From the IMG/VR virus record IMGVR_UViG_3300025313_000008, positions 24,378 to 88,377 of that record: a stretch of DNA of 64,000 nt, one strand, 5' to 3'. The notes beneath the pieces are model-generated. The model saw only the letters and a program-made list of their open reading frames with translations, had not been told where the DNA came from and did no database searches. Numbering within the stretch: position 1 is the stretch's first letter; each line of letters begins with the position of its first letter. This DNA is from a virus. Positions 1 to 42,190 of the stretch are shown piece by piece. Both the position numbers and the translations under genes were made by a program.

Positions 1-3000
1 CCATTGATTTCCAAGTAATTTCTGTTATTTTAACTTCATTTGCATTAGATTCTAATGAAGTATCTGGATCTCTTAAGAATGCCATTATTGCTCTTTGTCT
101 TTCTCCTATATTCATATCTTTCCATTGCCTATCTGGATATTTATCATCCCACCATTTATGTGCTTGATACATTGTTGATAGTTCTACTTCTATCGCTTTG
201 ACTTCCTTACCAAAATCTCCCCACATATATCTTGCTTCATTGGGTAAGTCTTCCCAATTTCTATATACCAATGGATTTATAGCACTACCTATATCTGCAC
301 CCATACCAAATCCTATGTTCTTTAATTCTTCTGCTTTTTCTTCATATGATGCACCTTTCCACCATGTTTTATCAACTTCTCCATAAAATCCTTTTTGTAT
401 TCTACCAAATGGATATTGTTTGTAATATTGATATTCTATCTTAGGTGGAGTTTTTTCTATTATTTCTTCTTGACTAATATCTTGTCCATTTGCTTCTGGT
501 TCACTATATCCCCTTACACTATCCATTATATTTTTTCCCGTAGGAGCATCTAATGGATCTGTAAATTGATTATAAATAGAATCTAACTCAATAGCTTTTT
601 TTTTGTATGATTCATTTCCTAAAGCAAATCTTACTTGTTCCTGTTCTGTTGGATTAAGAGAAGAAAAACTTCTCCATCCTACATTATCGATACCTAATAA
701 TTCACCTTGTTTATCTCCTTCTAATTTTCCCCATTCTGAAATTATTATAGCATCATCATAGGCATCTTCTTTTGCGTAAGATTCACCAGCATTTTCTTTT
801 CTTTCTTGTTCTTTAAATTCGTTCCATGTATTGGTTATTATAGCTTTATGGTCTTCTGTCATTCCTTCATATGGTATAAGTTTACCTTTTTCAACTAAAT
901 CCTTTGCTACTCCCCAACTCCAATTAGTTCTTTCACGATAATCAACATTTTCGAGTCTAGCATCTATCCAGCTTCTTAATCTAGCATCTCTAGTTTTTGC
1001 TATAGTTTGTGGATCTCCTCTTGGTCTTCCCTCATACGGTCTTCCGTCATAAACTGATACATAGTTATCTATTGGGAAATAGTCTGTTTGTGGATCATAT
1101 CCTGCTCCTGTTTGGCTGTAAATAGATCCTATTTCGGATGCACCATAAGGATATTCTCCACCTAAGTAGTGTGCATTAATGGCACTTCCGCCAGAAAAGT
1201 ATTCAGTTCTTACTGACCATTTTGAGTTAGGATGTTTTTCTTGTAAGTGTAATTTCATTATTGGTGCTTTATATCTTACTCCAAGACCTTCTATATCACC
1301 TCCATTAGTTGGAAATCCCTTCAAACTTGTTACAATGTCTTTCTTTTTCTGATAATAACCTTCAGTTGGATCTCCCATATCCTGTAAGATTTTACTCTTA
1401 ATTGTATCAAATTTCTTTTGGTTTTTTGGTTTATCAACCAATGGTTCAGGCATTGTTGGTGTTATTGGTTCTTCTCTTGGTTTTGGTGTTGGTATATCAT
1501 CTTCTTCTCTCTGTCCTGTATAATAATCTTGATAATCTTTCGTTAATTTTTGTGCATCTTCTCTTTTATTTAATTCTTTTTCTGCGTCAGTTCTTTGATC
1601 CTTACTTGAATATGGATCATCTAAAATCTTATTTAAATCAGAATTTGATTTACTTGATAATCCTCCATCTCCAGTTCCGACACCTTTACTTGTAAATTGT
1701 CCACCTTGATCTCTTGGATGTTCTTCTTCTTTAAAGTTATCTGCTTCACCAATGGGCTCATTGGGGGCTAATAACTGTAGTAATATTGCAATATCTTCTT
1801 CTTCATCTTCGCCTTCTTTTTCCTCTTCTAATTCGTTATCTAGTAGTCTATCTAAAAGTTTAATATCTTTTGGATCATTTACTTCTTCATTTGCCTTTGT
1901 TTCCGAATCAAGTCCTTTTTGTGGTTCCTCATATTCTGTAGGAAAAGTTTTATCTAACCAACCTTTTACATCAGATTTTATATGTGATTCACCTATTTCT
2001 TTTAGCTTACTAGTTCTTTCTGCTTTAGTCATTGTACCCCATTGTATAGGAGTAACTTTTGTGTATCCTCTACCTAATCTTGTTTGTAAGTTGTGTGGAA
2101 GACTTTCCCATGCAAATTCAGAGTGACTTACTTTATATTCTGGCACTTTAACTTCTTCAACTTGTTCATATATTTCATATAATTCTCCTCCTAAAAATGT
2201 AACATCGTTTACATTTACTTTTATTCCATCTTCATATTCGTTATGAACTCCATCTACTCTTACAAAGAATGAATTGTCATCTATCAATGGAATTGCTCCA
2301 ACTTTTCCCGTTTTTCCTGCGTAATCTCCTTTGTTAATCTTAACCTTTCTTCCTTGTCTTTCTGGCTCGAACTCATTCGCTTTTTTATCCAATTCATCCC
2401 ATATATTAGCTGGTGGCTGTGTTCCTGCTGGGGGTCCTGATACACTTATAGTTGATTCTTCATCACCAAATTCTTTCTTAAGTTGTTGATGTATTTTCTT
2501 TTCTTCCTCTTTTGGTTGTTCACCCATTAATTCATGTTCTCTTTTTATCATTTCTTCTGGAGTATGACCATCTATAGCCTCCCCTTTTGGTTTGTCTTTT
2601 GGATTCATGGTATTGCCATAGTCATTCATAAGGTCTTCTATCCACTTATATTCTTTATCTGTTAATTGAGATACTGATTTACCAAATTCTTCTTGTGCCA
2701 TGATTTCCCATGCTTGATCATTCATTTCTTTATTGCTTTTGTAGAAATCTCTTTCTATTGCTATGGATTCATCACTTGCACTTTCTCTAAATAATTCATT
2801 CATTTTTATTTTAAGTGCTTCCTTATGAGCATCAGGCAATTCTTCCCAATCCAGATTTGCCTCAGATATAACAATTCCTTGATGAAATCCTAATGAACCT
2901 AACATTTGCTCTCGCATTCCTGTATCCATTTTTCTCCACATAAATATATATGTCTCTCCTTTTTCTGTTGCATGTGATTCAAACAAAGTTGGTTCTTCAT

Positions 3001-3532
3001 CAAGCATTGCATTAAACTTTTTAGTTATTGTATCTTGTTGTTCCCAACTAAGTTCATTCCAATGAGTACTATAACCTTTTAATCCCCATTGCCATTCAGC
3101 ATCCTTCCATCCTTCTTCTTCCCACCATTCTTTTGCTGTTGGATTCTTTTCATTTGCATATGATTCTTCGTTTTTTGGATGTCTTTGTTCATATTCAAAG
3201 TCAGCTTGATCATTTAAGCTATATTCACGAACTAGGTGGTCTTCGTATTTCTCTCCATGTGTTTTTGCTTCTGTTGGTGAAGAAAACTCTTTTTTACATG
3301 TGTTGCACCACCAACCTCTACCTTCGCTTTTCACATCGCTTCCAATATAAGTTTCATTAATGTCTTCTTGTCCTTTTTGATATTCATATGGAGTAGAAGG
3401 ATCTTTTTCTGCCTTCATTCTTATTCTTGCTCTTTCTAATTCCTCTGGATCATAGTCACTTTGAGTCTGTGATTCTGGCTTGTCGCCTTCCGTATAATCC
3501 CATCTTCCTTCGTCTGATTCATATTCTGTCAT
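1..3532 (-). CDS. Giant acidic modular (polyvalent-type) protein, >1170 aa, truncated at the window edge; absent from the ORF track
   Basis: Hand translation from ATG at 3532 (MTEYESDEGRWDY...) is stop-free to position 2. It contains a C2H2-like finger (CNTCKKEF...H...H), a KOW-like motif (KVKINKGDYAGKTGKV), an HPRDQGGQF motif, an LPD29-like segment and repeated E-S-x-A-x-E linkers. Confidence 0.9.
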   Translation of the reverse strand, partial: MTEYESDEGRWDYTEGDKPESQTQSDYDPEELERARIRMKAEKDPSTPYEYQKGQEDINETYIGSDVKSEGRGWWCNTCKKEFSSPTEAKTHGEKYEDHLVREYSLNDQADFEYEQRHPKNEESYANEKNPTAKEWWEEEGWKDAEWQWGLKGYSTHWNELSWEQQDTITKKFNAMLDEEPTLFESHATEKGETYIFMWRKMDTGMREQMLGSLGFHQGIVISEANLDWEELPDAHKEALKIKMNELFRESASDESIAIERDFYKSNKEMNDQAWEIMAQEEFGKSVSQLTDKEYKWIEDLMNDYGNTMNPKDKPKGEAIDGHTPEEMIKREHELMGEQPKEEEKKIHQQLKKEFGDEESTISVSGPPAGTQPPANIWDELDKKANEFEPERQGRKVKINKGDYAGKTGKVGAIPLIDDNSFFVRVDGVHNEYEDGIKVNVNDVTFLGGELYEIYEQVEEVKVPEYKVSHSEFAWESLPHNLQTRLGRGYTKVTPIQWGTMTKAERTSKLKEIGESHIKSDVKGWLDKTFPTEYEEPQKGLDSETKANEEVNDPKDIKLLDRLLDNELEEEKEGEDEEEDIAILLQLLAPNEPIGEADNFKEEEHPRDQGGQFTSKGVGTGDGGLSSKSNSDLNKILDDPYSSKDQRTDAEKELNKREDAQKLTKDYQDYYTGQREEDDIPTPKPREEPITPTMPEPLVDKPKNQKKFDTIKSKILQDMGDPTEGYYQKKKDIVTSLKGFPTNGGDIEGLGVRYKAPIMKLHLQEKHPNSKWSVRTEYFSGGSAINAHYLGGEYPYGASEIGSIYSQTGAGYDPQTDYFPIDNYVSVYDGRPYEGRPRGDPQTIAKTRDARLRSWIDARLENVDYRERTNWSWGVAKDLVEKGKLIPYEGMTEDHKAIITNTWNEFKEQERKENAGESYAKEDAYDDAIIISEWGKLEGDKQGELLGIDNVGWRSFSSLNPTEQEQVRFALGNESYKKKAIELDSIYNQFTDPLDAPTGKNIMDSVRGYSEPEANGQDISQEEIIEKTPPKIEYQYYKQYPFGRIQKGFYGEVDKTWWKGASYEEKAEELKNIGFGMGADIGSAINPLVYRNWEDLPNEARYMWGDFGKEVKAIEVELSTMYQAHKWWDDKYPDRQWKDMNIGERQRAIMAFLRDPDTSLESNANEVKITEITWKSM
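1040..1265 (-). other. LPD29-like domain within the giant ORF
   Basis: IMKLHLQEKHPNSKWSVRTEYFSGGSAINAHY...YDPQTDYF resembles, from memory, the LPD29 pattern (LK..FP..KFSVR...YSGGSSI.V...FD...DY). Confidence 0.6.
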
Positions 3533-3538
3533 TATTTA

Positions 3539-6376
3539 TCACCTTGGATTACTTGTGGTTTGGTTAACCCAAGCATTAACACCTTCATCATAATCACTCG
3601 CTGTTTTATCATCATCTTTTTTTCTTCCACTTCCGGGTCCTCCTTCATCAACTGCCACATCGCCATGTTCTTCTAGTCTATGATTTTCCATTTTATCAAC
3701 ATTAATTAATTTTCCACATTCGGGACATTCTTTTGTATATTGTCCACTAATTTCATTTGCTCTTGTTTCATTGATATACGCACCTTCGTCTTGTAAAGCT
3801 CTAACTGCCTCTTTTCTATCTATTCCATTATCCAATAGAAATTGTAAAGCACCTTCTGCGTCTTGTGGTGCATCTTCTCCAAATTGTTTGTTCCAAACAT
3901 CAAGTAAATGATCTGCTCTTGCTTCATTGCCTTTCATATATTTTGTTCTATCAGTTCCGGGTTCAATACCAGTACCATTACATCTATTACATTTGGGTCC
4001 ACGACCACTATCATAATCTGTCGGGTACATTCCCACTCCACTACACTGTTTACATGAATATTCATATCCAACCGGTACTCCTAAATGACTACCATCAGGT
4101 AAAAAATTCCCAGCTTCATCTGCACCATCACGATTAGATATATCATCACCATGCTGAAGTCTCCAAACATAATTGTTCCAATACCATTCACCGCTATATT
4201 CATCCATTACTGGATTCTTTGCTCCTAATGCTCTAACTTCTTCTTCTGTGTAAGTTTTATAAAAAGCTTCATCTGGAATTGCTTCCCCTGCTTTTGATTC
4301 AGGACCAAACCAAATTCCCATTTGTTCTAATTCTTCTGGCGATTTGTTGCCATATTTTTTCTTAAGTTTTGCTCTTATGCCCATCATTCCTTGAATAAAC
4401 TCATCATTGCTTAAATCATCCTTATCTGCTTCTTCAAACTTACTTTTTGGCATAGTTACTGTAGTAGAAAATCCCATATCGTGATGTCCTGTTTCATTTT
4501 CATGCTTGCTTGCTCCACTTGCGTCTTCAAATTGTGCTCCACAATTATCACATTGCCACTTGGCTTCTGTTGCTATTGATTCAATTATACTCCCTGTTGA
4601 AATACCCCGATTGTTTAACTCTTTCCTACATGCGTTAATTTCGCCCGTTAGAGCCCAAAGACCTCCTTGTGTTTTAAGTGTTGGTAATTTATCTTCAGCT
4701 CTTTGAAGTCGTCTTTGTAGTTCTTCTGTGCTTAAACTAGAATAATCAGATTCCTCTGCTTTTGCTTCATTTCCCAAACCACATTTTGGACATGACCTAC
4801 CAATAGGATTTCCATATTCGTCTTTTTTTGTGGTTACTTTCTTGTTACCACATCTAGGACAAGCCCAATTATAATCAAACTCTTCTTTTGCTTCAAATGT
4901 AATTCCATGATCAAGTAGATGATCACCAACAGATTTTCCATATGGTAGTTTTACACCACATTTACTGCAAGTCCATTCGTCATATGCTTCATTTAAAAAT
5001 TGTTGATAAGCTTTACTTTGGCTGTAACCTTTTCCTATTCTTTCTCCACTTTCACAATCAATCTCATATCCCTCCCAATCAAAACATTGTTGGCTCACAA
5101 CGTGAACTGGATCTCCTTCTACAACTGGTCTATCTTTTGCTTCATTACCAACTTTTGATCTAATATAATCTAACATTTCGTCATGGTTTGCTCCTTTTAC
5201 TTGTTTCAAAATGTTTGCTGGTAAATGTACATTTTCATCCCAACCACCAAGCGAACCAATTACATTATAATCTTCTTTACCATGCTTTTCAATATATTTA
5301 TCAAGTGCTTGTTTATGTGAATCATTTAAACTTGAACTTCCACCAACACTTGAAAATTTTCCATCGTCTGCGTGGTTTGGATTTGCTTCAGAATAAAAGT
5401 CAGAACCTAAAGAATCAAAATCGGTATCTGCCATTGCTCCTTGAATTCCAGTTTGTGTGTATTGGCTTGGAATATGAACACCATGTTCTTGTTCCATGTG
5501 CCAATCTAATGTTTCTGGTTCCTTAATTTTTTCCTTACAAAAAGGGCATTCATCATCTAATCCTTGTTCATTAGCTTTTTTTTTATAGTCGGGTGAATCG
5601 TGGTATTTTTCTATATCATAAAAGTCTCTATATGCTTCATTAATCTCTTTTTCTTCATCATCTTTTACCGGTTTATCCATAATTCCTTTATGTAAAGCAT
5701 ACAAATCTTCATCATTATCTATTACCAAATCTTCTTCTTTTGCATATGCTTCTGAAGCATCTTTCTTAAGTTGTGGAGATAAGTTATACCAATCTAAATT
5801 AGCTAATGTATATGCACTGCCTTGATTAATGCCAAGAGATTCAAATAATTGTGCTTTCTTTTCTTTTTCTATTATTCCCCATGATTCTCCTAAACTGTCT
5901 ACTTTTCTTATATTATCAAATGAACCTTCTTTACTTGAATCTTTATCTTCATATCCACAAACTGTACAATATTTTCCAGATTTACTTCCATATAATGTAT
6001 GTCTATCACAACTTGGACAATCTCCAATAGGATCTCCTTCTTTTCCTTCTTTTTTTAGTCTTTCTTTCCTTGCTTTATCATCGCGCCAATCATGACCAAA
6101 TTGCTGTTTGTATTGATAATCATCCATACTATCTTCGTTTGCATTTGCTTCACTTGATATTACTCCATTACCTAAACATCTTGGACAATCTTCGGTTTCG
6201 CCGTTAGAAGATACGCTACCTGAGCCATGACATGAAGGACATGTTTTTTCTTCTGCCTTTTTTAAACAAAATACTTCTGAATAAATATTGTTCATTGCTT
6301 CATGAGCTTGTGCTACATGATCTTTATATTCTTCTTCAATTTCAAACTCTTTTCCGCAAACTCCACATTCAATCAT
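3539..6376 (-). CDS. 945-aa multi-zinc-finger acidic modular protein (probable internal head polyprotein)
   Basis: About nine CxxC-based modules (C2H2-like, DnaJ-like CxxCxGxG, ribbons) are separated by EANANE, EAYAKE, GNEAKAEE, ESIATE, ESKAGE and ETRANE linkers. Its stop lies 6 nt from the next ATG. Confidence 0.85.
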   Translation of the reverse strand: MIECGVCGKEFEIEEEYKDHVAQAHEAMNNIYSEVFCLKKAEEKTCPSCHGSGSVSSNGETEDCPRCLGNGVISSEANANEDSMDDYQYKQQFGHDWRDDKARKERLKKEGKEGDPIGDCPSCDRHTLYGSKSGKYCTVCGYEDKDSSKEGSFDNIRKVDSLGESWGIIEKEKKAQLFESLGINQGSAYTLANLDWYNLSPQLKKDASEAYAKEEDLVIDNDEDLYALHKGIMDKPVKDDEEKEINEAYRDFYDIEKYHDSPDYKKKANEQGLDDECPFCKEKIKEPETLDWHMEQEHGVHIPSQYTQTGIQGAMADTDFDSLGSDFYSEANPNHADDGKFSSVGGSSSLNDSHKQALDKYIEKHGKEDYNVIGSLGGWDENVHLPANILKQVKGANHDEMLDYIRSKVGNEAKDRPVVEGDPVHVVSQQCFDWEGYEIDCESGERIGKGYSQSKAYQQFLNEAYDEWTCSKCGVKLPYGKSVGDHLLDHGITFEAKEEFDYNWACPRCGNKKVTTKKDEYGNPIGRSCPKCGLGNEAKAEESDYSSLSTEELQRRLQRAEDKLPTLKTQGGLWALTGEINACRKELNNRGISTGSIIESIATEAKWQCDNCGAQFEDASGASKHENETGHHDMGFSTTVTMPKSKFEEADKDDLSNDEFIQGMMGIRAKLKKKYGNKSPEELEQMGIWFGPESKAGEAIPDEAFYKTYTEEEVRALGAKNPVMDEYSGEWYWNNYVWRLQHGDDISNRDGADEAGNFLPDGSHLGVPVGYEYSCKQCSGVGMYPTDYDSGRGPKCNRCNGTGIEPGTDRTKYMKGNEARADHLLDVWNKQFGEDAPQDAEGALQFLLDNGIDRKEAVRALQDEGAYINETRANEISGQYTKECPECGKLINVDKMENHRLEEHGDVAVDEGGPGSGRKKDDDKTASDYDEGVNAWVNQTTSNPR

Positions 6377-7994
6377 AATTCACACCTGTAGTATTCTTTT
6401 TGGCTTCACCGGCATATAGCCTCATTTCACCAATCTCGGCTTGATTACATTCAGATAGCCTTTTTCCAAACAAAGTATTTGCTACTCTGTCGTCATCTGA
6501 AACTTCAACGCCTCTTATTTTGCTTATGGCGTCTTCGTATTCTAAACCATGATTAATAAATAGTTCTCTTGCTATTTTATCTTCGTGATAACCGTTAAGT
6601 TTTCTGTTGTAGATTACTTCATCAACAGTTTCTGTTACTACAGGTACATCTAATGCACCTTCCATGATATCTGCTAGTGATTCTCCACCTTTTGTTTTAT
6701 TACCTATATAGGATGATAAAGTTCTTGCTTCACTAGCTTTTATATTATCTTTTTCATCAATATTATATTCTTGTGCTTCTACTTCTATTACACTCATATC
6801 TACTTCATTAAGTAAGTCTGGCACTTTTTTGTTTGAATGTGATTCTAATCCATATTTGTTAATTTGTGCATTTGCTATTTTCATTGCTCTATCCCTTGAA
6901 TATTCTGGATTTTCTCTTTGAATCGCATCTGCCATTTCTGTATGTTTGCCTGTGTGTTCTTCTTCTGAAATATCTTCTTCTGCTACTTTATCGCCAAAGT
7001 AAGTATCAAAGTCATTATGTTCATGTGGATGCTCTGGATCATAATGTTGATGTATTGGTTTCTCTTCTTTTACTTGTTCATCATATTCATCTGGCTGTGT
7101 TTCCCCTGCACCAAGTTTTAACAATGTCTTAAATAAAAGTGGTCTATTAACAGAATCTAATATTCTTAATGTTCTTGGATGTAATTCACTTGCAGTAACT
7201 TTTTGTGCTACTTCATTTGCATAAATATCTCTATTGGTTTGACTCTTTTCTACATCTTTGGTTGATTCCCATCCGTATTTATTTAGAATTTCTTCTTCAA
7301 CTTCAATTAAAAGACTTGCTTCTGAGGCAGGTCTTCCTTCTTGTTCATATGGTGTTCTTGTTCCTTTTCTGAATAATTTATTGTCATAAAAATAATGATT
7401 TGGATTATCGTCATATTCCTTTCTTCCTTTTGGAAGTTTTGGTGTTGTTATTGTAGGACCTTCTTCTTGTGGAAATGTTTGCCTTGCAGATTCCCCTCTT
7501 ATCACTCGTCTCGCCCAACTTAAATTATCTTTTGTTAAATCTGGATCAATATCAAGTGATCTGAAATAAGCTTCTTGGCTTTCTGTTTCACTTTCCTCAT
7601 TGTCATGGTTCACTTTTCTGTGAACTCTAAAGTCTTCTTCTGCAGTAAATGTTTCCTCACAATCCTTACATTTGTATCTATTGTCTCCATCTACTTCATA
7701 TACATTTGCTCCATAAGAATCACTAAAGTATCCCATTTCATGCAATCTATTAGAAACATAGAATTGAACTGTTGGAGGAAGTGAATAATAACTCATATTT
7801 TCGTATGAGCTACTTTTCAAATCCTTTTGGTATACATTTTTTGTGTTATTAGAAATGTTTGTCTCTGTCCCCACATTCTGACCTAAAATTGTGGTTCTTG
7901 TCTCCGGACTTAATTCGTTCCAAAGTTCACCTTCACTTACCATCTCTAAGGATGGCGTATCATTGCTGATATCACTATATGAAGGGTCAGACAT
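6369..7994 (-). CDS. 541-aa acidic modular protein with C2H2 finger (probable head-associated protein)
   Basis: CKDCEETF...HRKVNH finger, helical AIQRENPEYSRDRAMKIANAQ module and several AxE/SxE motifs. It is the first gene behind a capsid-type promoter. Confidence 0.8.
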   Translation of the reverse strand: MSDPSYSDISNDTPSLEMVSEGELWNELSPETRTTILGQNVGTETNISNNTKNVYQKDLKSSSYENMSYYSLPPTVQFYVSNRLHEMGYFSDSYGANVYEVDGDNRYKCKDCEETFTAEEDFRVHRKVNHDNEESETESQEAYFRSLDIDPDLTKDNLSWARRVIRGESARQTFPQEEGPTITTPKLPKGRKEYDDNPNHYFYDNKLFRKGTRTPYEQEGRPASEASLLIEVEEEILNKYGWESTKDVEKSQTNRDIYANEVAQKVTASELHPRTLRILDSVNRPLLFKTLLKLGAGETQPDEYDEQVKEEKPIHQHYDPEHPHEHNDFDTYFGDKVAEEDISEEEHTGKHTEMADAIQRENPEYSRDRAMKIANAQINKYGLESHSNKKVPDLLNEVDMSVIEVEAQEYNIDEKDNIKASEARTLSSYIGNKTKGGESLADIMEGALDVPVVTETVDEVIYNRKLNGYHEDKIARELFINHGLEYEDAISKIRGVEVSDDDRVANTLFGKRLSECNQAEIGEMRLYAGEAKKNTTGVNYD

Positions 7995-8014
7995 AAATTT
8001 AATTAGATTTTCTA

Positions 8015-8026
8015 CTTTATAAGCAT
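8015..8026 (-). promoter_or_regulatory. Late-type TATA promoter ATGCTTATAAAG
   Basis: Identical 12-mer to the capsid promoter core (35376..35387), 21 nt upstream of ATG 7994. Confidence 0.7.
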
Positions 8027-8061
8027 ATACTAAAATTATTGCAATATAAGCATTTCTATAC

Positions 8062-33581: not shown

Positions 33582-35351
33582 TTATAGGTGTGACAATCTT
33601 ACTGTTGCTTCTACGTTCTTAACTACTGCAGAGATTTTCTGAGTTCCAGTCAAATGAATCAACTGTCTCTCGTTCCTTCGCTGAGCTTCCATTGTTAAGT
33701 CTCTTCCTGAAACTAAACCAAATGCTACATTTGGAATAAACATTACAGATCTTTTTCCACCAACGAAAGTTGTTGGAGCTATTGCAGATGATCTCACTAG
33801 ATTTGTTCCAGCGATTCTTTCTACAGTTGCTTCTGTAATTATTGCAGGTCTAGAGAATCCAATGTATGAATCCAGATCTGGATCTAATGTTAAGTCACGA
33901 ATTCCTTTACCGCTAGTGTATGTGATTAAGTTTGAATCGTCTAAACCTTCATCTTGAATTACTCCCTTTGCAGAAAGTAATCCTCTGTAGGTTAAAACTC
34001 CTAAACCACCGGCATCAGCTACTATTTGAGTTCCTGTATTACCATCGACCCATCTACCAGCTTTTGTACCACCACCTTTTGCCTTTCGAACAGTTGCTGA
34101 ACCTGAAGAACCTGCATCGAGGTTGTAAGCTCGAGTCAAAACTTCTACTGATTCATCATTTATGCTCTCAAGTGCAAATGAACGGTTTGCTGAAGCAATA
34201 ATATCAATCGGACTTTCCTCAGTTTGTTGATAACCGATATCTATCCTTGTACCTCTTGGATCTGTCTCTGTTCCAGCACTTCTTATGATTGGTGAAGATA
34301 ATGGAACTGCTACAGCCGGATCAGTGTCTCCTTCAACGATATCGCTGAAAGTTACTGGTCCAAAGTCGTAGAAGAATGCTTCTCGTGTTCCCGGAGGCAA
34401 AACTTTTGTCTCTGTGAATTGACGAATTGGAGTTACTACTTTTCCACTAGGTAATACTAGAACTTGTTCTGACATGATTCTCATAAAGTCTCCGTCAGCT
34501 GGTCCTGCTACTGAAATTGTTACTGCTTCTCCGCCATAAGTCTTACCCACTTCTGTTTTTGGAACTGGGAATTTTAACTCATTGCCGTTGGCATCAAATT
34601 TCTTGTAGAATTGCTTACCGTAATTCTCATAGATTTTCTCCTTGTTAATGTGCCAGATAAATGCTGGACTTACATTCTCTTCTCTTTGAACCGCTCTGAA
34701 CCATGCAGAGGGTTTTGATATTTCTGCCTCGACAGCACTGGTCTTAGAACCATTTGCATAGACTCCTTGTGGAGTGTTTACTAATGCTCTTGGTTTTGAA
34801 GACTCTTTTGCTTGTCTAATTCGTGCATCCAAATCAGCTTCTTTAGCTAGTAATTCTTTAGCACGTACTCGCATTTCGGCTTGTTCTAGTTTTCTCAAAG
34901 CTTCGGCTTTTGCAATTTTATATGCATAAGTTCCGTTTCTTCGAGCCTCGCTAGTTTTGTCAGCATTTGATCCAGTTAATTTAGTTGGATCTACTGCTGG
35001 TTCGCTACCGTCTTGTCCTGTAATCAAATCGGTTATTACACCTTTCTCATTGTCATCTGGAAGTTCTGATCCTTCAACAAGATCAACATCGATCCCGTCT
35101 ACTGTTTCAGCCTCTCCAGTTGCAGATGAAGCTTTTGCTACTGGTTCAGGTATTGAACGCTTACTTGCGTCACCTAAGTCAGATTTTTCACATTTTCGAG
35201 TATGTGCGTTCCAAATTTGACCATCCGGACAATTTGCACCACCAGCAGTTCCGTCTGCACCATTATCTGGTACTCCGCTTGCTGGAAGTTTTCCTGTTGG
35301 CTCTATTTGATCGCTAACATCCTCTGTTGCTTTTCTAACCTTTGTAGGCAT
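33582..35351 (-). CDS. Major capsid protein precursor (HK97 fold) with long N-terminal propeptide/scaffold
   Basis: C-terminal about 314 aa show an HK97-like pattern; N-terminal acidic region and coiled coil; follows the protease. Start MPTKVRK at 35351 lies 25 nt below a TATA box, whereas the track start at 35387 falls inside the promoter. Confidence 0.88.
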   Translation of the reverse strand: MPTKVRKATEDVSDQIEPTGKLPASGVPDNGADGTAGGANCPDGQIWNAHTRKCEKSDLGDASKRSIPEPVAKASSATGEAETVDGIDVDLVEGSELPDDNEKGVITDLITGQDGSEPAVDPTKLTGSNADKTSEARRNGTYAYKIAKAEALRKLEQAEMRVRAKELLAKEADLDARIRQAKESSKPRALVNTPQGVYANGSKTSAVEAEISKPSAWFRAVQREENVSPAFIWHINKEKIYENYGKQFYKKFDANGNELKFPVPKTEVGKTYGGEAVTISVAGPADGDFMRIMSEQVLVLPSGKVVTPIRQFTETKVLPPGTREAFFYDFGPVTFSDIVEGDTDPAVAVPLSSPIIRSAGTETDPRGTRIDIGYQQTEESPIDIIASANRSFALESINDESVEVLTRAYNLDAGSSGSATVRKAKGGGTKAGRWVDGNTGTQIVADAGGLGVLTYRGLLSAKGVIQDEGLDDSNLITYTSGKGIRDLTLDPDLDSYIGFSRPAIITEATVERIAGTNLVRSSAIAPTTFVGGKRSVMFIPNVAFGLVSGRDLTMEAQRRNERQLIHLTGTQKISAVVKNVEATVRLSHL

Positions 35352-35367
35352 ACTAATTAAATTTAAG

Positions 35368-35394
35368 CATAATTCCTTTATAAGCATTTAATAA
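35368..35394 (-). promoter_or_regulatory. Strong late promoter TTATTAAATGCTTATAAAGGAATTATG
   Basis: 26/27 identical to 54470..54496. Confidence 0.8.
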
Positions 35395-35438
35395 GTATAT
35401 ATTAGGGGTGTTTTTAGTGTAATTTTTCGTGCCTATTT

Positions 35439-37556
35439 TTATGCAGTTGTTGAATTATAATTAAATGGTGTTGAAGTTGTAGTTGCCATTACATCGGTTG
35501 TAGTAAATGTAATATTGCCTGTTTCCGATGAAGTTAAATATGGTATAGCTAATGATTCTGCTATTATTGTTTGTTTCGCCCTTTTCTTTAAGTTTGCTTC
35601 TACTGCTTCAATAGTTGCTATTGGAAAACCGGGGTGATATACTAATGAAACTTCTCTAAATTCTGCTCCTCTAATAAGTGTATAACATTCTTGATCACAA
35701 ACTTGTGGAGAATCAGAATCATACCAAATTCCTAATGATACCGCCATTTGTGCATCATCTACTTCCCTTTGGAAGAATTTGTCTATAATTACTCCTTCAT
35801 AATAAAGTGTTAATTCTTCGGCTACCCATTTTAGTTTAACCCATCCTATTTGGTAATCTTCATTTTTTTCAAGAGAACCTCTCATTTTTTCGTCTAATCT
35901 ATCTAATTCTTCTTCTGCTCCCGCTACATTGCTATGATTTAATAAAAGTGGCAATGTTTTACCGTCACCTTTTGCTAATTCTTCAGGGAGATAAATACGA
36001 TTATTTAAAGAAACTCCAGCATATGCTAATACACCTTTTATTTTCTTTCCTTTTTGTTCAATAGTTGGTATTCCAAATAAAAGACCAACTCCTTCATGTG
36101 CAGGTCTCTTTAATTTTAATATATTTATTTTTCTTTGAACCCAACCTTCAAACTGTTTCACTGATTTAGGACATACTAGGCACTCTAAGCTTTTTTTTTC
36201 AAATGGGTTTTCGGAATCCTTTTTCTTTTCGAATGGATTATCTGCCTTTTTCTCAAATGGGTTCTCTTTCTTTGGTTCTTGAGGCTGAGTTGATTGTTGT
36301 GGTTGTTGATTTAATGGTGGACTTGAACCCTGCGGTTGCTGTGTTTGATTTGGTGGTTGATTTGGCATTTGGGTTGGTGTTTGTTGTAATCCAGATTCAT
36401 TTGGTTGCACACCATCTACATTGCCGTCTCCTCCACAACGTGGACAATCTTTTAAACCTAAATGTTCAACGGTTACTTTACCAGTACCTTTACAAAAATC
36501 ACAATTACCTATATCATTTTCTGAAGCTTTTTTTTTAACTTCAGTATAAACAGTTTTAAATTTTAATATTCCTTTCTCTTTCATAATTATTTTTTCAACA
36601 GCAATAACTTCTTCAACTGGTTCCTTTTGTTCTATTGGTTCCTCTTTTGGTTTGTCTACGTTTTGAGTTATATTTCCTTGTGGAGTATTAATAGTTGGAA
36701 TTTCTGTTGTTTCTGCTGGTTTTTGAACTGGCAGTTCTTCTTCGTGTACTTCAAAAATGTTATACTTTTTATATTTACCATTTGATTCTTTTATTATAAT
36801 ACTTTCACTAGTTGGATTTAATTGAGGTGTACTTGTTGCAGTTGTTGGTTGTGGCATTGATGATTGTGGGTTTGGAACTATATCACCTTGTTCCTCAGCA
36901 TCTTTAACATAATAATCATCATCTAATTCTAATACATCTTCGTCTGCTTCTTTCCAAAATTTGTTATCATACTCCAAATCATTGTCTTCTGCTTCTCCAG
37001 CCCTTGGAATGTAAATTTTTCCATCATATTCTATTGATTCTACTTTATTATATGATTCACCATTATATTCAAGACTTTGATGATCTTCTCTCCTTTTGTC
37101 TTTATTTTCATCTTCATTTTCTATATGTTTTGAACCATTTAGTTTTCCATATGCATTGGTTTTCTTAATATCTGAATCTTGACTAACTTCTGAACTTCCT
37201 TGATGTCCTACATTTGCTGGTTCTGCTTGATCTTGTGGATTTGCTGATGGTTCTGCCTTATCCTGTGCTGGATTTGCTGGCGATAATTCACCTTGTCCAG
37301 AAGCAAATGGATTTTCTGCTTCTCTTGAAGAACCTTGTGGAGATGTTAAATCTTGTGGATCTTCTGTTTTTACATCATCGGCATTTGGTGAAGTTAAAGA
37401 TTGAGTTTGTTCTGGAACTTCTGCCTCATTTTGTTTTCTATCAATAGTTGCTACATAAGCGTCTGCCCTTTCTTTTGGCAATCCCTTACTTTGTTGAACT
37501 GATTTTGAGGCGTCCTCAAATTTATCATAAGTTTGATCCCCCATCTTGATAGGCAT
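35439..37556 (-). CDS. Prohead protease (assemblin/HK97-type) with long acidic N-terminal region
   Basis: IKGVLAYAGVSLNNRIY, PLLLNH (His), IGWV, AVSLG (Ser) and EVSLVYHPG; located between portal and capsid. Confidence 0.88.
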   Translation of the reverse strand: MPIKMGDQTYDKFEDASKSVQQSKGLPKERADAYVATIDRKQNEAEVPEQTQSLTSPNADDVKTEDPQDLTSPQGSSREAENPFASGQGELSPANPAQDKAEPSANPQDQAEPANVGHQGSSEVSQDSDIKKTNAYGKLNGSKHIENEDENKDKRREDHQSLEYNGESYNKVESIEYDGKIYIPRAGEAEDNDLEYDNKFWKEADEDVLELDDDYYVKDAEEQGDIVPNPQSSMPQPTTATSTPQLNPTSESIIIKESNGKYKKYNIFEVHEEELPVQKPAETTEIPTINTPQGNITQNVDKPKEEPIEQKEPVEEVIAVEKIIMKEKGILKFKTVYTEVKKKASENDIGNCDFCKGTGKVTVEHLGLKDCPRCGGDGNVDGVQPNESGLQQTPTQMPNQPPNQTQQPQGSSPPLNQQPQQSTQPQEPKKENPFEKKADNPFEKKKDSENPFEKKSLECLVCPKSVKQFEGWVQRKINILKLKRPAHEGVGLLFGIPTIEQKGKKIKGVLAYAGVSLNNRIYLPEELAKGDGKTLPLLLNHSNVAGAEEELDRLDEKMRGSLEKNEDYQIGWVKLKWVAEELTLYYEGVIIDKFFQREVDDAQMAVSLGIWYDSDSPQVCDQECYTLIRGAEFREVSLVYHPGFPIATIEAVEANLKKRAKQTIIAESLAIPYLTSSETGNITFTTTDVMATTTSTPFNYNSTTA

Positions 37557-37813: not shown

Positions 37814-38006
37814 AAATATACACTTTTTCGCCTTTCAAACTCTTTGCAAATTCTCTAGCTTCTTCCGCAGTATTAGTGTGTTTTACAACGGTTACTCTAT
37901 TTCCTATATCTGAATATTCATCATATGTACAAACATTGAATCCTTTCTTTGGTGTTGTTCTTAATTGTTCCTTGATAACTAATTCTATGTAACTTTCATC
38001 TGTCAT
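37794..38006 (-). CDS. 70-aa protein coupled to the portal-synthetase fusion (candidate antitoxin)
   Basis: ATG 38006 overlaps the portal TGA (ATGA); function inferred from position only. Confidence 0.55.
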   Translation of the reverse strand: MTDESYIELVIKEQLRTTPKKGFNVCTYDEYSDIGNRVTVVKHTNTAEEAREFAKSLKGEKVYIYGAQNG

Positions 38007-41000
38007 TGTAAGCACCCTATTATAACCAATTCTGGTGGACATTCTGGCGGATTTGCTTTTTTACCACTATCCAAATCATAGAAATAATCCGACATCTTAT
38101 AAGAATAATCTGTTATAATGTTCATATTTTCTTTTAAATATTCCTTCATTTCATTATCAAATGGTTTATAAAATTCATGAGCCCAATCTGCCCATTTTTG
38201 CTGATTTGGCGTTCTTACCTGAACTTCAGAAACTAATCCTTGTTTATCAATAATTGATAAGTGAACGCTTCTATATCCTCCTTTTGAGTTTTCTAAATAT
38301 TTTTCTTCATTTACAATATTATAATTTTCTTTCATATGATTGACTGTTTTATTTACATCATTTAGATTTTCTAATACTAGTCTAACTGCTGATATATCAT
38401 TTAAATCAGATACATCTTTATACAAATTAGGTCTTCTTGCTAATTTTTCTATCATACTGTAAGTTGTTTTCACTCTTCCTGTTACATCTGCATTAGGAAA
38501 TTCTTGTTTCAAACTGTCAATAACCTCTTTGACTCTTTTTTGATGTTTATCTTGTAGTTTTTCTGATTTGATCGCTTGTTTGGTTGCTGTTTCATGATCA
38601 AATTTATCTGGAAATGTGTTCGTAATATCCCTAATTGCATCTGTTCTTTCAATTTGTCTTGAATCATCTATCTTCACCTTTGTTGGTTTTCCCTTTTTTT
38701 CTTCTGGCTTCCTTCCTCTTCCCCTTGTATCCCATCCTTTCTTCGCTCCTTCTGGCGTTCCTGTTTCCTTCGACTGATCTTTTTTTTTTCTCATATCTTT
38801 GAATCTTGGTGCTCCTATTACTTTTTTTGCTGGATTTACAAATACTTGTTCGGACTGAACCCTCATTCCATCAGAAGTCAAAGCCTCAGATACTTTTTTA
38901 TCTTCGTCTTCCCCTAATACTGGTTCCCAACCTTCTTCTTTTGGTTCTTCTGGATTAAACAGTTTTTCTACCCTTCCTTGTGGTTCATCAGGTGTAGTAT
39001 TGTCGAAAACATTGGTATTATCTTGATTTTGTTTGTCTAATTCAGCATTAAATTGATCTTCTGATACCATTGGTGGTTGATTTATAGGCTCATTTTGATG
39101 TCGCTGTCCTTCCAATTCTGCCTCATATTCCTCCTTAGTTACAATCTCATTTTCCAATTCAACGTTTGGTTGAGTTTCATCTGAATCTGGAGTTTGATCA
39201 AATCTTAAATCTGGAACTTCATTACCTTGTTCATCAGTTAAGTCTGTATAATTTACTCCTGTTTCTGGATCTACATGTAATTGGTCTGGATCTATCTCAT
39301 TTGGATCTACTCCTTGATCAATATTTTGTCCTTGTGATGGGTCTGCATTTGGCACTGGTATATCTTTCTGTGTTGGTTGAACTTGCTGTACGTCTTCTGG
39401 CTTTACGATCATTCCATCATCATGAGGAACAGTTCCTATTGGATCTTCTCTAGTTGGATTTTGTAAGCTATTAGTTTCATCAGGTCTTACATTTAATCCA
39501 CTTTGATCTATTGGTGGATCGCCCGGCGTTGGTAATGTAGAATAATCATCATTTCCTGTTAATTCAGCTTGTTTTAATCTATATTGATCAGATTGTCCTA
39601 TTGCTGGTTCAACAGCATTTCCATCTTCACTTATATCATTCTTAATATCATCTAAATTAGTTGCTTGATTTGTAGATTGTCCTTCTTTTGGTGGTCTACT
39701 TGGATTTATTCCAGATATGTTGTTTACTGGTGTTTCTTGTAATGGAGTATCATCTAATTGTGCTTGACCTTTTTGTGGTTCATTTAGATGTGGATTTGGA
39801 TCTTCAAAAGGTAAACTTGGATCTGAGTCTTCTGGCTTCTTTGCGTCTTTATGTGGTTCTTCAAGTGGATCAGGTTTTTTATTTATTTTTTCCGCTTCAT
39901 TTAATTGCTGACTATTCTCAAGTTTCTTTAATTTTCCACTCTTTTTATCTTCTTCATCTTTGCCAAATCCTTCCGCTTTTTCATATGGTGGTTCATCTCC
40001 TTTCAGTGAACCTAATTGCTTCAAATCTGGATTTTCAGGTTCATATCCACCTGTTAAACCTCTACTTAAATTATCTCTCTCACGAGGTCCGATATTTGTA
40101 GTTTGTGGTTGTCCTTCTTCTGGTTCTGCTGGTTCATTTTGTATATCTGCCAAATCATGTGGATCTTTTATATCACCAGTAGAATCTTGGTTTATTCTTT
40201 GGTCTCCAGTTCCGCCTTTAGTATGATCTCCCTTTACCTTACCTTCTAATTCATTAACATAATCGCTTAATTTAACCTGAGGTGGTTGATTAACCACATT
40301 TCCAGAAGCATCTACTTGTGGAATTCCTTGTCCTCCAGCATTTGTAAAGTCTATTCCTTGACTATCTCCTCTTTTTGCATTCAACATATTTCTTCTTGCT
40401 TCTTCTTGTGGATCTAATATTGGTGGATTCATAGAATCTGCTCTTCTTTGTGGTGCGTTTGGTGGTAGTTCACCTTCAAACTCATCTTTATCCAATCCAT
40501 ACACTTTTCTTAATTCTGGATCTGTAACATCTGGGCGACCCGGCGTATCTAATCCTTGTGAAACATACAAATCAGATGAACTATTGCTTAATGCTCCTGC
40601 CTTTGGTGGTAAAGATATTCTTTCCTGTGCTTTTAGAGTTGCTTCTACTGCCTTTAAAACTATTTTTTCCACATCGTCTTCTGTCAATGATTCTCCCTTT
40701 TTCTTTCTAAATATAGATGGTTCCTGTTTGTCTGTTCTTGTAGGTGATGGTCTATCTTTTTCAATATCAGGTCTTGGAGGTGTCGTTGGAGCTGGTTTTG
40801 TATCACCTTTATCATCTCCTCCAAACGGTGGTTTTCCTTTATCTCCTATTGGTGTTGGTTCTCCTCCTCCAAATCCATTGTTTTGAGCCTGAACCATAGC
40901 AGTATCTTTTTGGTCTTGTTTGTCTTGTTTAAGTTCGTTTTGAAATTCATCATAAAGTTGGTCATCTAATGGAATGTTTAATTTTTTATACATTTCTCTC

Positions 41001-42190
41001 TTTTCTTTAGGTGCTACTGATTCTGGATCGAGTAGTTTAATATCATCCATTGTAAGTCGTTTAACGTTAGGAGTAAATGATACTTCCACTTCCATTTCTT
41101 CAAATTCTTTAAATCCCCATGATTCTGCTAATGGTTTTAATAGCTTGTCAATAATGAGTTCGGCAACATCGTTTTGCATGTCCACCATTCTTTGATCTAA
41201 AACGTCTAATGGACTTTGAGCACTTGAATAACTAAATCCGCCGGGATGGGATATAACTTTTGAAGCAAAGCCCGTAGCTATATCAATGTGTGAATCTACG
41301 TTATCTCCATAATCATCAAAACGTGTTTGTGCCTGTATTTGTAGTTCTTTTGAATCAACCGGTTTATCAAAAATCCATATGTATTGATCACTGTTTGGAT
41401 CTGCCATTTCTAACTGTACTTGCTTCATTTGATCTTGTGGCATTCCCGGAGCAGATACAATGAGTCTTGGTTTACCCATTTTCTCTTTAATTTCTACTTC
41501 AGCATTTTGTAGAATTGCTTGAGCATCTAATAATGGACGTAAGTTTCTATCGGGGTTTATAGGCTGACCTGTGAATTTATCAACTTTTGTAGTTACGGGT
41601 CTTGGTGATGCAACAGAAAAGAATTCAGATTTTCCAAATGCTTGTCTATCAGGGTTATTAATCATCCAATGCATAAAGTATTCTGGATCGAGTTCTTTGA
41701 AAACACCGTCAACAACTTGTACTAGTTTAAGTTCATTAGCAAACTGATCCCTGAAAACCCTGAATATAGTCTGCATAGGAATATGTTCTACGTTTCCTAT
41801 TCTTCCATCAGGTGTATATTGAATCTCCATTATTGCGTTTCCTGTAATTAATCCAGATAAGAAATACTCACTAAATTTTTTTCCTGCGTTTGTTGTTTTC
41901 CACCATTTTTCTATAAAAACATTAAAATATTCATTGTTAGATTTTATTTCTATTCCTGCACCAATTAGTTTTTGATGAGAAGTATCCATGGATCTTTTAA
42001 TTTGATCCCAATGATGATAAAATTCAAATAATCGTTCAAATGTTACTGGAGGAAATTCTCCAACTAATTGTTTAGAAGGACCTACCACTGTTGCATTCTT
42101 TTTTCTTACAATAGAACCTAAAAGTGAGTTAAATGTTTGAAATACTTTTGGTACTGCTTCACTCGCTTTTCGTCTAAATCCAAAAGCCAT
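38003..42190 (-). CDS. Portal protein fused via an acidic linker to a RelA/SpoT-like small alarmone synthetase domain
   Basis: N-terminal about 400 aa are portal-like (GNAIMEI, HIPMQTI, AFGKS); C-terminus has GRVKTTYSMIEK, DISAVRLV, GGYRSVHL, EVQVRT and WADWAH..YK. Confidence 0.88.
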   Translation of the reverse strand: MAFGFRRKASEAVPKVFQTFNSLLGSIVRKKNATVVGPSKQLVGEFPPVTFERLFEFYHHWDQIKRSMDTSHQKLIGAGIEIKSNNEYFNVFIEKWWKTTNAGKKFSEYFLSGLITGNAIMEIQYTPDGRIGNVEHIPMQTIFRVFRDQFANELKLVQVVDGVFKELDPEYFMHWMINNPDRQAFGKSEFFSVASPRPVTTKVDKFTGQPINPDRNLRPLLDAQAILQNAEVEIKEKMGKPRLIVSAPGMPQDQMKQVQLEMADPNSDQYIWIFDKPVDSKELQIQAQTRFDDYGDNVDSHIDIATGFASKVISHPGGFSYSSAQSPLDVLDQRMVDMQNDVAELIIDKLLKPLAESWGFKEFEEMEVEVSFTPNVKRLTMDDIKLLDPESVAPKEKREMYKKLNIPLDDQLYDEFQNELKQDKQDQKDTAMVQAQNNGFGGGEPTPIGDKGKPPFGGDDKGDTKPAPTTPPRPDIEKDRPSPTRTDKQEPSIFRKKKGESLTEDDVEKIVLKAVEATLKAQERISLPPKAGALSNSSSDLYVSQGLDTPGRPDVTDPELRKVYGLDKDEFEGELPPNAPQRRADSMNPPILDPQEEARRNMLNAKRGDSQGIDFTNAGGQGIPQVDASGNVVNQPPQVKLSDYVNELEGKVKGDHTKGGTGDQRINQDSTGDIKDPHDLADIQNEPAEPEEGQPQTTNIGPRERDNLSRGLTGGYEPENPDLKQLGSLKGDEPPYEKAEGFGKDEEDKKSGKLKKLENSQQLNEAEKINKKPDPLEEPHKDAKKPEDSDPSLPFEDPNPHLNEPQKGQAQLDDTPLQETPVNNISGINPSRPPKEGQSTNQATNLDDIKNDISEDGNAVEPAIGQSDQYRLKQAELTGNDDYSTLPTPGDPPIDQSGLNVRPDETNSLQNPTREDPIGTVPHDDGMIVKPEDVQQVQPTQKDIPVPNADPSQGQNIDQGVDPNEIDPDQLHVDPETGVNYTDLTDEQGNEVPDLRFDQTPDSDETQPNVELENEIVTKEEYEAELEGQRHQNEPINQPPMVSEDQFNAELDKQNQDNTNVFDNTTPDEPQGRVEKLFNPEEPKEEGWEPVLGEDEDKKVSEALTSDGMRVQSEQVFVNPAKKVIGAPRFKDMRKKKDQSKETGTPEGAKKGWDTRGRGRKPEEKKGKPTKVKIDDSRQIERTDAIRDITNTFPDKFDHETATKQAIKSEKLQDKHQKRVKEVIDSLKQEFPNADVTGRVKTTYSMIEKLARRPNLYKDVSDLNDISAVRLVLENLNDVNKTVNHMKENYNIVNEEKYLENSKGGYRSVHLSIIDKQGLVSEVQVRTPNQQKWADWAHEFYKPFDNEMKEYLKENMNIITDYSYKMSDYFYDLDSGKKANPPECPPELVIIGCLQ

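Follow-up and report, generated by a model that had tools for sequence, protein, structure and literature searches.

Three consecutive open reading frames (ORFs) on the minus strand, here called A, B, and C, lie at the beginning of the window analyzed in this work, a 64 kb stretch comprising bases 24378-88377 of the 98,399-bp virus record IMGVR_UViG_3300025313_000008. Judged from its genes, the element is a head-tailed archaeal virus with a capsid protein related to that of the Nitrososphaera provirus Pro-Nvie1. Portal, protease, HK97-type capsid, and tail genes are all located within the same 98-kb record, which places the three ORFs in the context of a portal-terminase virus. Nearly all genes of the record are encoded on the minus strand. 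A, B, and C form an operon (Table 1), in which A and B overlap by 8 nt and C starts 6 nt after B, behind the sequence GGTGA. An original prediction, made from the letters alone, had delimited the three ORFs correctly and gave a length of more than 1170 aa for C, which comprises 1444 aa in the full record. It took them for zinc-finger-rich strings of modules of 40-100 aa, separated by protease sites, packaged into the head, and expressed from a capsid-type promoter. The upstream region of A contains an ordinary TATA element of the kind also present before mcm, DUF932, and other genes, and it does not resemble the upstream sequence of the capsid gene, so that a capsid-type promoter is not supported. 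The pieces between the motifs described below (7 in B, 10 in C) measure 21-373 aa. Zinc fingers are indeed abundant in B, which harbors 13 CxxC, and are confined in C to the first and the last pieces. All of these pieces, or cassettes, are acidic, with isoelectric points (pI) of 4.5-5.4.

Table 1. Features of the A-B-C operon and of the head module, with positions in the window. Motifs are named by sequence, ORF, and residue.
Feature	Position	Strand	Remarks
ORF C	2..3532	-	N-terminal 1177 of 1444 aa; runs past window start to genome 23575
Motif ESNANE (C 1161)	35..52	-	
Motif EVKAIE (C 1110)	188..205	-	
Motif ESYAKE (C 917)	767..784	-	Top position weight matrix score of the genome
Motif ETKANE (C 544)	1886..1903	-	
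Motif ESIAIE (C 255)	2753..2770	-	
Motif ESHATE (C 185)	2963..2980	-	
Motif ESYANE (C 123)	3149..3166	-	
ORF B	3539..6376	-	945 aa; polyprotein of cassettes with six motifs and a C2H2 finger at the N-terminus
Motif ETRANE (B 870)	3752..3769	-	One end of the block replaced in a co-occurring strain
Motif ESKAGE (B 693)	4283..4300	-	
Motif ESIATE (B 599)	4565..4582	-	
Motif EAKAEE (B 537)	4751..4768	-	Other end of the replaced block
Motif EAYAKE (B 209)	5735..5752	-	C-terminal border of a helical cassette modeled with confidence
Motif EANANE (B 76)	6134..6151	-	
ORF A	6369..7994	-	541 aa; first gene of the A-B-C operon
Region upstream of A	7995..8061	-	TATA-like GCTTATAAAG about 25-32 nt before ATG
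Major capsid protein precursor	33582..35387	-	601 aa; ~287-aa propeptide/scaffold part and HK97-type core
Capsid-maturation protease domain	35592..36065	-	aa 498-655 of the 705-aa ORF 35439-37556
Portal	38003..42190	-	N-terminal ~400 aa portal, long low-complexity linker, RelA/SpoT domain

The cassettes of B and C are joined by a recurrent hexapeptide. All 13 linkers quoted in the original prediction were recovered in the two ORFs. The pattern E-x-x-A-x-E occurs six times in B (0.64 expected) and nine times in C (0.98 expected), and in neither case was the observed number reached in any of 2000 composition shuffles. The remaining 45 ORFs of the window (15,972 aa) contain three copies in total. 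A, for which the linker had been proposed as well, is not enriched (1 versus 0.43 expected). The looser pattern [ASG]-x-E, named as the cleavage site in the original prediction, was not enriched in B (P 0.08) or in C (P 0.6). Bare A-x-E was found more often than expected in all three ORFs (A, 10 versus 3.5, P 0.0025; B, 12 versus 6.3; C, 19 versus 8.3). Since the hexamer is enriched in B and C and loose [ASG]-x-E is not, the real signal is the hexamer. At the DNA level, the word GAADCNNNNGCNNNNGAA has 12 matches in the 64 kb with 0.24 expected, and all 12 are in frame within B or C.

The consensus derived from 98 sites in 15 family proteins, including B, C, and the two copies of a close relative, is [G/N/S]-E-S-[K/Y]-A-[K/T/N]-E, with ES(K/R)2-3A-x-E as an inserted variant. 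With a position weight matrix trained on homologues only, the top 9 matches of the genome were all located in B and C. The best matches outside these two ORFs included the capsid propeptide (ELLAKE at aa 178, and aa 17) and the N-terminus of the portal protein. The motif is thus a real, strongly non-random, and conserved feature.

Related viruses were reached via the capsid protein, as B gave no related loci when used as query in an IMG/VR locus search. Two of them were compared in full, G001 with a 93% identical capsid protein and G003, a complete genome with terminal repeats and a capsid identity of 54%. The A-, B-, and C-type ORFs of G001 comprise 560, 1057, and 1255 aa, with eight hexamers in its B-type protein (B2) and four in its C-type protein (C2). 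No homologue of B or C was detectable by BLAST in G003. Nevertheless, ORFs of this virus hold two, five, and three hexamers (ESKAKE, ESKAIE, ESHAIE, and others) together with the N-terminal C2H2 finger and the C-terminal hallmark of C-type proteins. Database searches added 13 B-type and 17 C-type proteins of 577-2167 aa, which brings the motif-bearing metagenomic homologues to ~30. Each of the 15 family proteins mentioned above has 3-11 sites versus 0.6-1.6 expected, and the 17 C-type homologues together have 117 hexamers versus 18 expected. A scan of IMG/VR with GAATCAWAWGCAAMWGAA returned at least 116 matches, mostly single chance ones; among the matches listed, one locus (L121) has three motifs in one ORF.

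The ends of these proteins are much more constant than the middle. All B-type proteins share the same N-terminal C2H2 finger. Most C-type proteins start with EEGRWDYTEGD...ELERARxRMxAEK, an acidic leader, and end with a Gly-rich x-x-E-GGKGSGKKGHxxWMR and a zinc ribbon. C and C2 show 93% identity over aa 1-43 and about 45% elsewhere, the N-terminal segments being the most conserved parts. Among the variable middle cassettes are zinc fingers and helical units rich in Trp as well as a KOW-like and an LPD29-like unit. ORF A, 83% identical to its counterpart in a relative, is conserved and shows no mosaicism. A second recurrent motif, E-G-G-x-G-S-G-(K/R)(K/R), directly follows a Glu and often opens the last cassette; it was seen at B aa 905-915 (window ~3632-3664), in the C-terminal 60 aa of C outside the window, and in many homologues.

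Cassette borders coincide with the motif. The ends of 733 ungapped high-scoring segment pairs (HSPs) between family members were located within 5 aa of a motif in 20.3% of cases versus 10.9 +/- 0.8% by chance, and 10.5% of the HSPs spanned a motif versus 22.9 +/- 1.2% by chance. When the proteins were cut at the motifs, whole pieces of B matched whole pieces of B2 (B 82-214 corresponds to B2 130-232). In place of the three pieces from B 537 to B 870, B2 has four unrelated pieces, each again terminated by a motif. The same was seen in a co-occurring strain, whose contig, present in two metagenome runs, follows the window up to position 3754 and resumes at 4757, with one breakpoint inside the motif at 3752-3769 and the other inside the motif at 4751-4768. 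Cassettes were also found moved between B-type and C-type frames. The original prediction was thus right about the modular build of B and C, in which the motif marks the cassette boundaries and cassettes are replaced wholesale between co-occurring strains. In addition, precisely 504 nt (window 4879-5384, B aa 332-498) are missing from a co-occurring strain without any filler; the edges of this block, ...YSEA and ...FEAKE, are degenerate motif halves, and the block reappears elsewhere in the homologue P0011, behind a full EAKATE.

The codons of the motif were counted in 37 copies from three genomes (G000, G001, and G003). Ser is encoded by TCN in 23 of 23 cases, with AGY making up 37% of the Ser codons of these ORFs. 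For Glu, GAA is used in 74 of 74 cases versus a background of 90%, and 33 of the 37 Ala codons are GCA. Synonymous choice at the hexamer is thus frozen beyond the demands of the amino acid motif. Taken with the breakpoints inside the motif, this suggests that the 18-nt word may double as a recombination joint, or that the linkers are related by descent. A stronger version takes this role at the DNA level as the primary one: the word GAA-TCA-NNN-GCA-ANN-GAA would serve as a microhomology joint for cassette swaps, and the peptide would be a tolerated by-product. The frozen Ser and Glu codons, the strain contig that breaks within one motif and resumes within another, the blocks replaced between motifs among near-identical viruses, and the clean 504-nt indel with its SEA and FEAKE flanks all fit such a role. 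However, conservation proceeds by whole codons, with four fixed residues and two non-synonymously variable positions, all occurrences are in one frame and on one strand, and the motif persists in a relative without DNA similarity. Interchange of Ser, Ala, and Thr may also produce the codon bias, as may selection for codons that are read accurately at key sites. The whole-codon conservation and the persistence without DNA similarity indicate that the peptide is the selected object. A primary role of the DNA word, which would be compatible with the other readings, appears very unlikely to us.

We also looked at the position of the motif relative to predicted structure. The AlphaFold model of B has a mean predicted local distance difference test (pLDDT) score of 62 and contains at least nine separate confident small segments with disordered stretches between them; the input for this model was a MAFFT alignment of fragment rows, which was unstable, and in the version used, two short rows are poorly placed. 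Of the six motifs of B, five are located at sharp pLDDT jumps or drops. The commonest module is a Trp-rich helical cassette of ~55-60 aa with the pattern W...L..E....LG......a..L.W..L.... (B aa 150-215, C aa 129-260 and 923-1166). Its copy at B 160-215 is modeled with a pLDDT of 93-97 and terminates in a motif. In a Foldseek comparison of the whole-B model with the PDB, no E-value fell below 0.1 and the matches were vague zinc-finger arrays, and ESM-Atlas searches with B 148-332 and C 590-922 were uninformative (scores ≤0.82). Searches of A, B, and C against Pfam and PHROGs resulted only in sub-threshold matches to zinc fingers, Anti-TRAP/DnaJ-CR, and LPD29. The LPD29-like cassette is located at C aa 756-820. 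Its scores were below the Pfam cut-off of 27 bits in C (18) and in the homologues P0169 (23.9) and P0171 (26.7), with the same profile span in all three proteins. The sequence F-K-E-E-E-H-P-R-D-x-G-G-x-F-T-S-K-G recurs at the opening of the LPD29-like cassette (C aa ~600).

It is conceivable that the proteins are not cut at all but act as intact giant "polyvalent" proteins, with the hexamer as an inter-domain spacer or as a docking motif for one partner such as a chaperone, a scaffold, or a modifying enzyme. Polyvalent proteins of phages and plasmids often act or travel in full length (PMC5512222), and the LPD29-like cassette would fit this picture. Some motifs (B 209 and B 870) are predicted to be helical, and an acidic hexamer could be a plain helix-forming linker. 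A generic spacer, however, would not hold four fixed residues among otherwise unrelated proteins, and most of the motifs lie in low-confidence linkers at domain edges. At P3-P1, moreover, the motif follows the rule known for head proteases with Glu specificity and agrees with the predicted capsid site of the clade (PMC10052503). We regard permanently uncut proteins as unlikely and cleavage of the polyproteins at the motif as probable.

A candidate enzyme is encoded by ORF 35439-37556, which had already been named as a protease in the original prediction. Homology, protein-language-model neighbors, and structural comparison all assign the capsid-maturation protease fold to this ORF. Its domain shares 30% identity with the protease part of the Pro-Nvie1 fusion protein and 60% with that of a 916-aa fusion in G003. 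Pfam and PDB sequence searches with the domain gave no match, so a fold search was needed. The neighbors of the domain in the ESM language model are prohead proteases of families S77, S78, and S80. The top Foldseek match of the model (pLDDT 72) was T4 gp21 (5JBL) with a probability of 1.00 and a template modeling score of 0.53; the next matches were 28 chains of herpesvirus assemblin. Across eight homologues, His541 and Ser607 do not vary. A complex prediction for the protease domain and a 43-aa linker peptide from C yielded a score of 0.02, compared with a mark of 0.34, which counts neither for nor against an interaction. The N-terminal half of the ORF is of low complexity and includes a DnaJ-type zinc finger; the N-terminal extension measures 480 aa, and its CxxCxGxG finger resembles one in ORF B. 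Protease and capsid protein are encoded by separate genes here (705 and 601 aa; window 33582-37556), whereas they are fused in the 916-aa protein of G003 (L007 8789-11536) and in many homologues of 800-1027 aa.

The only other viral peptidase near the operon is a metzincin encoded two genes downstream of C. It was rejected as the processing enzyme, as it has a signal peptide or transmembrane helix and the sequence HEFAHAMGLGH and is probably extracytoplasmic. In each of the three related viruses, the gene (here genome 22168-22998; L002 4168-4998, minus strand, outside the window) lies close to the polyprotein operon. The secreted or membrane-anchored protein is possibly an enzyme that degrades the S-layer or envelope. 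HExxH was not found in any of the three ORFs of the operon.

Conserved predicted maturation sites of the head proteins fit the rule that the cut occurs after A/G/S-x-E (the slash in the following sites marks the predicted cut). For the capsid protein, cleavage is predicted after E287 (GGE/AVT, codon 34527-34529). The family has a conserved [A/G/S]-x-E/A-V-T at the start of the HK97 core in all near relatives that are aligned there, about 17 as read off the alignment list without a scripted count. P3 of this site is A, G, or S in the near relatives (KATE, SATE, KASE, KAGE, and SGTE; YGGE in the virus studied here) and K in the distant Pro-Nvie1-like branch. Downstream of the protease domain, ATIEAxE/A is conserved (here ATIEAVE/A). 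The portal protein has K-A-S-E/A at aa 8-12, which aligns with K-A-F-E/T of the G003 portal. Both sites of one protease-capsid fusion protein are full motifs of the polyprotein type, LEAIATE right behind the protease domain and, at the capsid site, ETKAKATE. The head-protein sites are consistent with a Glu-specific protease that prefers a small residue at P3, and the support they lend is circumstantial. The linker between the portal and RelA/SpoT parts of the portal ORF consists of ~800 aa of low complexity, rich in Pro, Gln, and Glu, and the RelA/SpoT domain matches Pfam at 1.3e-18. A Rel_Spo-like gene directly follows the portal gene of Pro-Nvie1 as a separate gene, and the G003 portal (678 aa) lacks the domain.

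We propose the following model. B, C, and the looser A would be precursor polyproteins of a head-tailed archaeal virus. Each would have constant ends and a variable string of small acidic cassettes joined by E-S-x-A-x-E, the presumed recognition site of the Glu-specific capsid-maturation protease encoded by ORF 35439-37556. This enzyme may cut after the final Glu of the hexamer, with Ala at P3 and Glu at P1, and would apply the same Glu rule to trim the capsid protein, the protease itself, and the portal. Such proteases normally act inside the procapsid, so the polyproteins would have to be loaded into proheads, presumably by their constant ends, and diced there into many small proteins. Upon infection, these would be released into the host together with the DNA as early-acting, probably anti-defense or takeover, factors. 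From the sequences, cutting after Glu by a prohead protease is plausible. The viral capsid protease is the most likely enzyme. Cleavage, the identity of the enzyme, and the function of the products are inferred, as are packaging and ejection, these two by analogy. For the whole model, including the viral capsid protease as the enzyme, packaging, and dicing, our confidence is limited, and we estimate its probability at roughly 0.4.

Several observations weigh against the model. The head proteins share only the minimal A/G-x-E, and the preference of the hexamer at P5 and P6 has no counterpart there. The capsid site of this virus is G-G-E instead of A-x-E, and the conserved E-A-V-T could be structural instead of a cut site. 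The Foldseek E-value of the protease match is just 1e-2. The motif at B 870 lies within a confidently predicted helix. Per copy, ~2,900 aa of strongly acidic protein (pI 4.7-4.8) would have to share the head with the DNA, which is awkward. The operon is ~26 kb away from the head module and has a generic promoter, so that late expression is not indicated. Finally, the virus is known from soil, sediment, and groundwater metagenomes alone, and from genes only.

Alternatively, the hexamer could be cut in the cytoplasm, be it by a Glu-specific host protease, by an unrecognized viral protease, or by the viral protease at work outside the capsid. The products would then be intracellular early or middle proteins, and the polyprotein would be a means of expressing many small proteins from a single leaderless transcript. 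A-B-C is flanked by methylase, Cas4, and MCM genes on one side and by an Hjc-like gene, the metzincin, and PrimPol on the other, and the gene order MCM, AAA_28, methylases, Cas4, and then the polyproteins is kept in relatives. This location among replication, methylase, and nuclease genes and the generic promoter would suit cytoplasmic processing, as would the lack of the full hexamer in head proteins, which suggests a stricter recognition than the capsid sites need. On the other hand, no second cytoplasmic protease was detected by Pfam or PHROGs in the 98-kb genome, and the metzincin has a signal peptide. The A-x-E core is common to the predicted sites of capsid, protease, and portal, and a host enzyme would have to be kept across all hosts of a diverged virus clade. 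Cleavage in the cytoplasm seems improbable to us.

A more far-reaching version of the packaged-and-diced model can be imagined, in which the polyproteins constitute a combinatorial library of virion-delivered effectors. The clade would keep re-dealing dozens of small zinc-finger and helical effectors within two constant "carrier" frames, and the hexamer codons would act both as the capsid-protease site and as the microhomology joint for exchange between co-infecting strains. This would amount to counter-defense by an exon-shuffling-like process in a tailed virus. We consider this version speculative and rather doubtful.

Short repeated sites in viral polyproteins have precedents. African swine fever virus (ASFV) pp220 and pp62 are cut at G-G-x by pS273R, and poxvirus core precursors are cut at A-G-x. 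In both cases, a viral protease acts during morphogenesis on structural or core polyproteins of a dsDNA virus and recognizes a short motif that recurs in them. They differ from the proteins described here in protease class and virus realm, their products are unrelated, and they are conserved, not hypervariable cassette arrays. Among tailed phages, T4 gp21 cuts internal proteins and Alt after L/I-x-E, and phiKZ gp175 cuts inner-body proteins after S/A/G-x-E. SPN3US gp245 cuts ejection proteins after A-X-E (PMC10052503), which confirms the specificity that the original prediction had given for it. As in these phages, a capsid-maturation protease of this fold is encoded by the virus, A-x-E forms the end of the motif, and the constant N-terminal segments of B and C could be targeting propeptides. 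Several cuts in one substrate are known from SPN3US gp53. However, the substrates of the phage enzymes mostly lose one N-terminal propeptide, whereas B and C would be cut at many sites, and no substrate in T4, phiKZ, or SPN3US is known to be a string of 1000-1500 aa with 6-15 unrelated cassettes and a regular six-residue separator. The genes of B and C are furthermore located outside the head module, the host is archaeal, and the proteins are known here from genes alone.

Polyvalent proteins combine 2-15 distinct domains in one chain of a phage or conjugative element and are proposed to be delivered with the DNA and then processed to separate units (Iyer et al. 2017, PMC5512222). Their repertoire includes LPDs, MPTase, ART, methylase, primase, and RelA/SpoT domains, and an in-chain zincin-like metallopeptidase is frequent, though not universal (PMC5512222). 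Archaea are poor in such proteins, and nearly all of those with more than 1000 aa are bacterial (PMC5512222). B and C resemble polyvalent proteins in being very large, mosaic, fast-shuffling, and multi-domain and in belonging to a portal-terminase virus. C has the LPD29-like cassette, and methylase, RelA/SpoT, DUF932, and Mom-type genes are located nearby. In contrast to polyvalent proteins, B and C have no in-chain zincin peptidase and no recognizable enzymatic effector domains; in the other cassettes, only generic zinc fingers were recognized. The cassettes are tiny, and a strict hexapeptide separator is absent from the published description, as are large archaeal examples (PMC5512222). The sub-threshold LPD29 cassette hints at a true kinship. 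The provirus Pro-Nvie1 (FR725450) shares with the virus studied here a RelA/SpoT-like domain beside or fused to the portal and x-x-E/A-V-T before the capsid core. It differs from this virus as a provirus remnant of 23.7 kb in which protease and capsid protein are fused and P3 is K, and its record contains no cassette polyproteins. A literature search did not reveal any published description of these cassette polyproteins. Among known systems, polyvalent proteins and the head cargo that T4, phiKZ, and SPN3US process by protease come closest; hexamer-punctuated cassette arrays are an arrangement not described for tailed viruses.

The affiliation of the virus rests on its capsid gene. In the phage collection, the sole match of the 601-aa capsid protein was the Pro-Nvie1 "protease/major capsid protein" (30.5% identity, E 5e-40), and a full HMMER scan of 1.8 billion representatives found 135 relatives, many of them protease-capsid fusions of 800-1000 aa. 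Near-identical DNA was present in soil, sediment, and groundwater metagenomes from at least 12 studies. The capsid kinship and the GC content of 33% point to Nitrososphaerota or another mesophilic archaeon as the putative host. Other genes of the record encode MCM, RadA, NAMPT, a Cas4-like nuclease, Dam- and Mom-type modification proteins, DUF932, PrimPol, and a helicase. The coding on one strand and the low GC content had raised the possibility of a Borg-like element or a plasmid, which was dropped as capsid, portal, and protease genes are present and tandem repeats of the Borg type were not found. An affiliation with magroviruses was rejected as well, since Pfam detected no DNA polymerase, clamp, or RFC in the scanned ORFs and the capsid protein matches Pro-Nvie1.

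Some further genes on the minus strand were noted. The NAMPT-type phosphoribosyltransferase and an AAA_28 (NadR-like) kinase (window 14909-16291 and 10297-10911) would make NAD salvage possible. A 2304-aa ORF (window 45927-52841) has tandem coding repeats of 36 and 42 nt (51242-51624) and no family match; it is probably a fiber or another large virion protein. The 145-aa protein encoded directly downstream of C (genome 23105-23542; L002 5105-5542) is 57% identical in the distant relative, which is above the conservation of the capsid protein. It has no Pfam match, and by eye it appears PD-(D/E)xK/Hjc-type resolvase-like.

Should the hexamer indeed be cleaved, ~20 small proteins per virus would arise from one operon, and hundreds of kinds within the clade. 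Such products would escape annotation by gene, as none of them has a separate gene, and the proteome counts of archaeal viruses would change, perhaps also those of other tailed viruses. The hexamer would then also be the first sequence rule for a capsid protease from a tailed virus of archaea. As a simple search key, the motif can be used to find such polyproteins in metagenomes. We know of no tractable virus-host system for ammonia-oxidizing or related soil and sediment archaea, and the cassettes would represent a catalogue of candidate takeover or anti-defense factors for these organisms.

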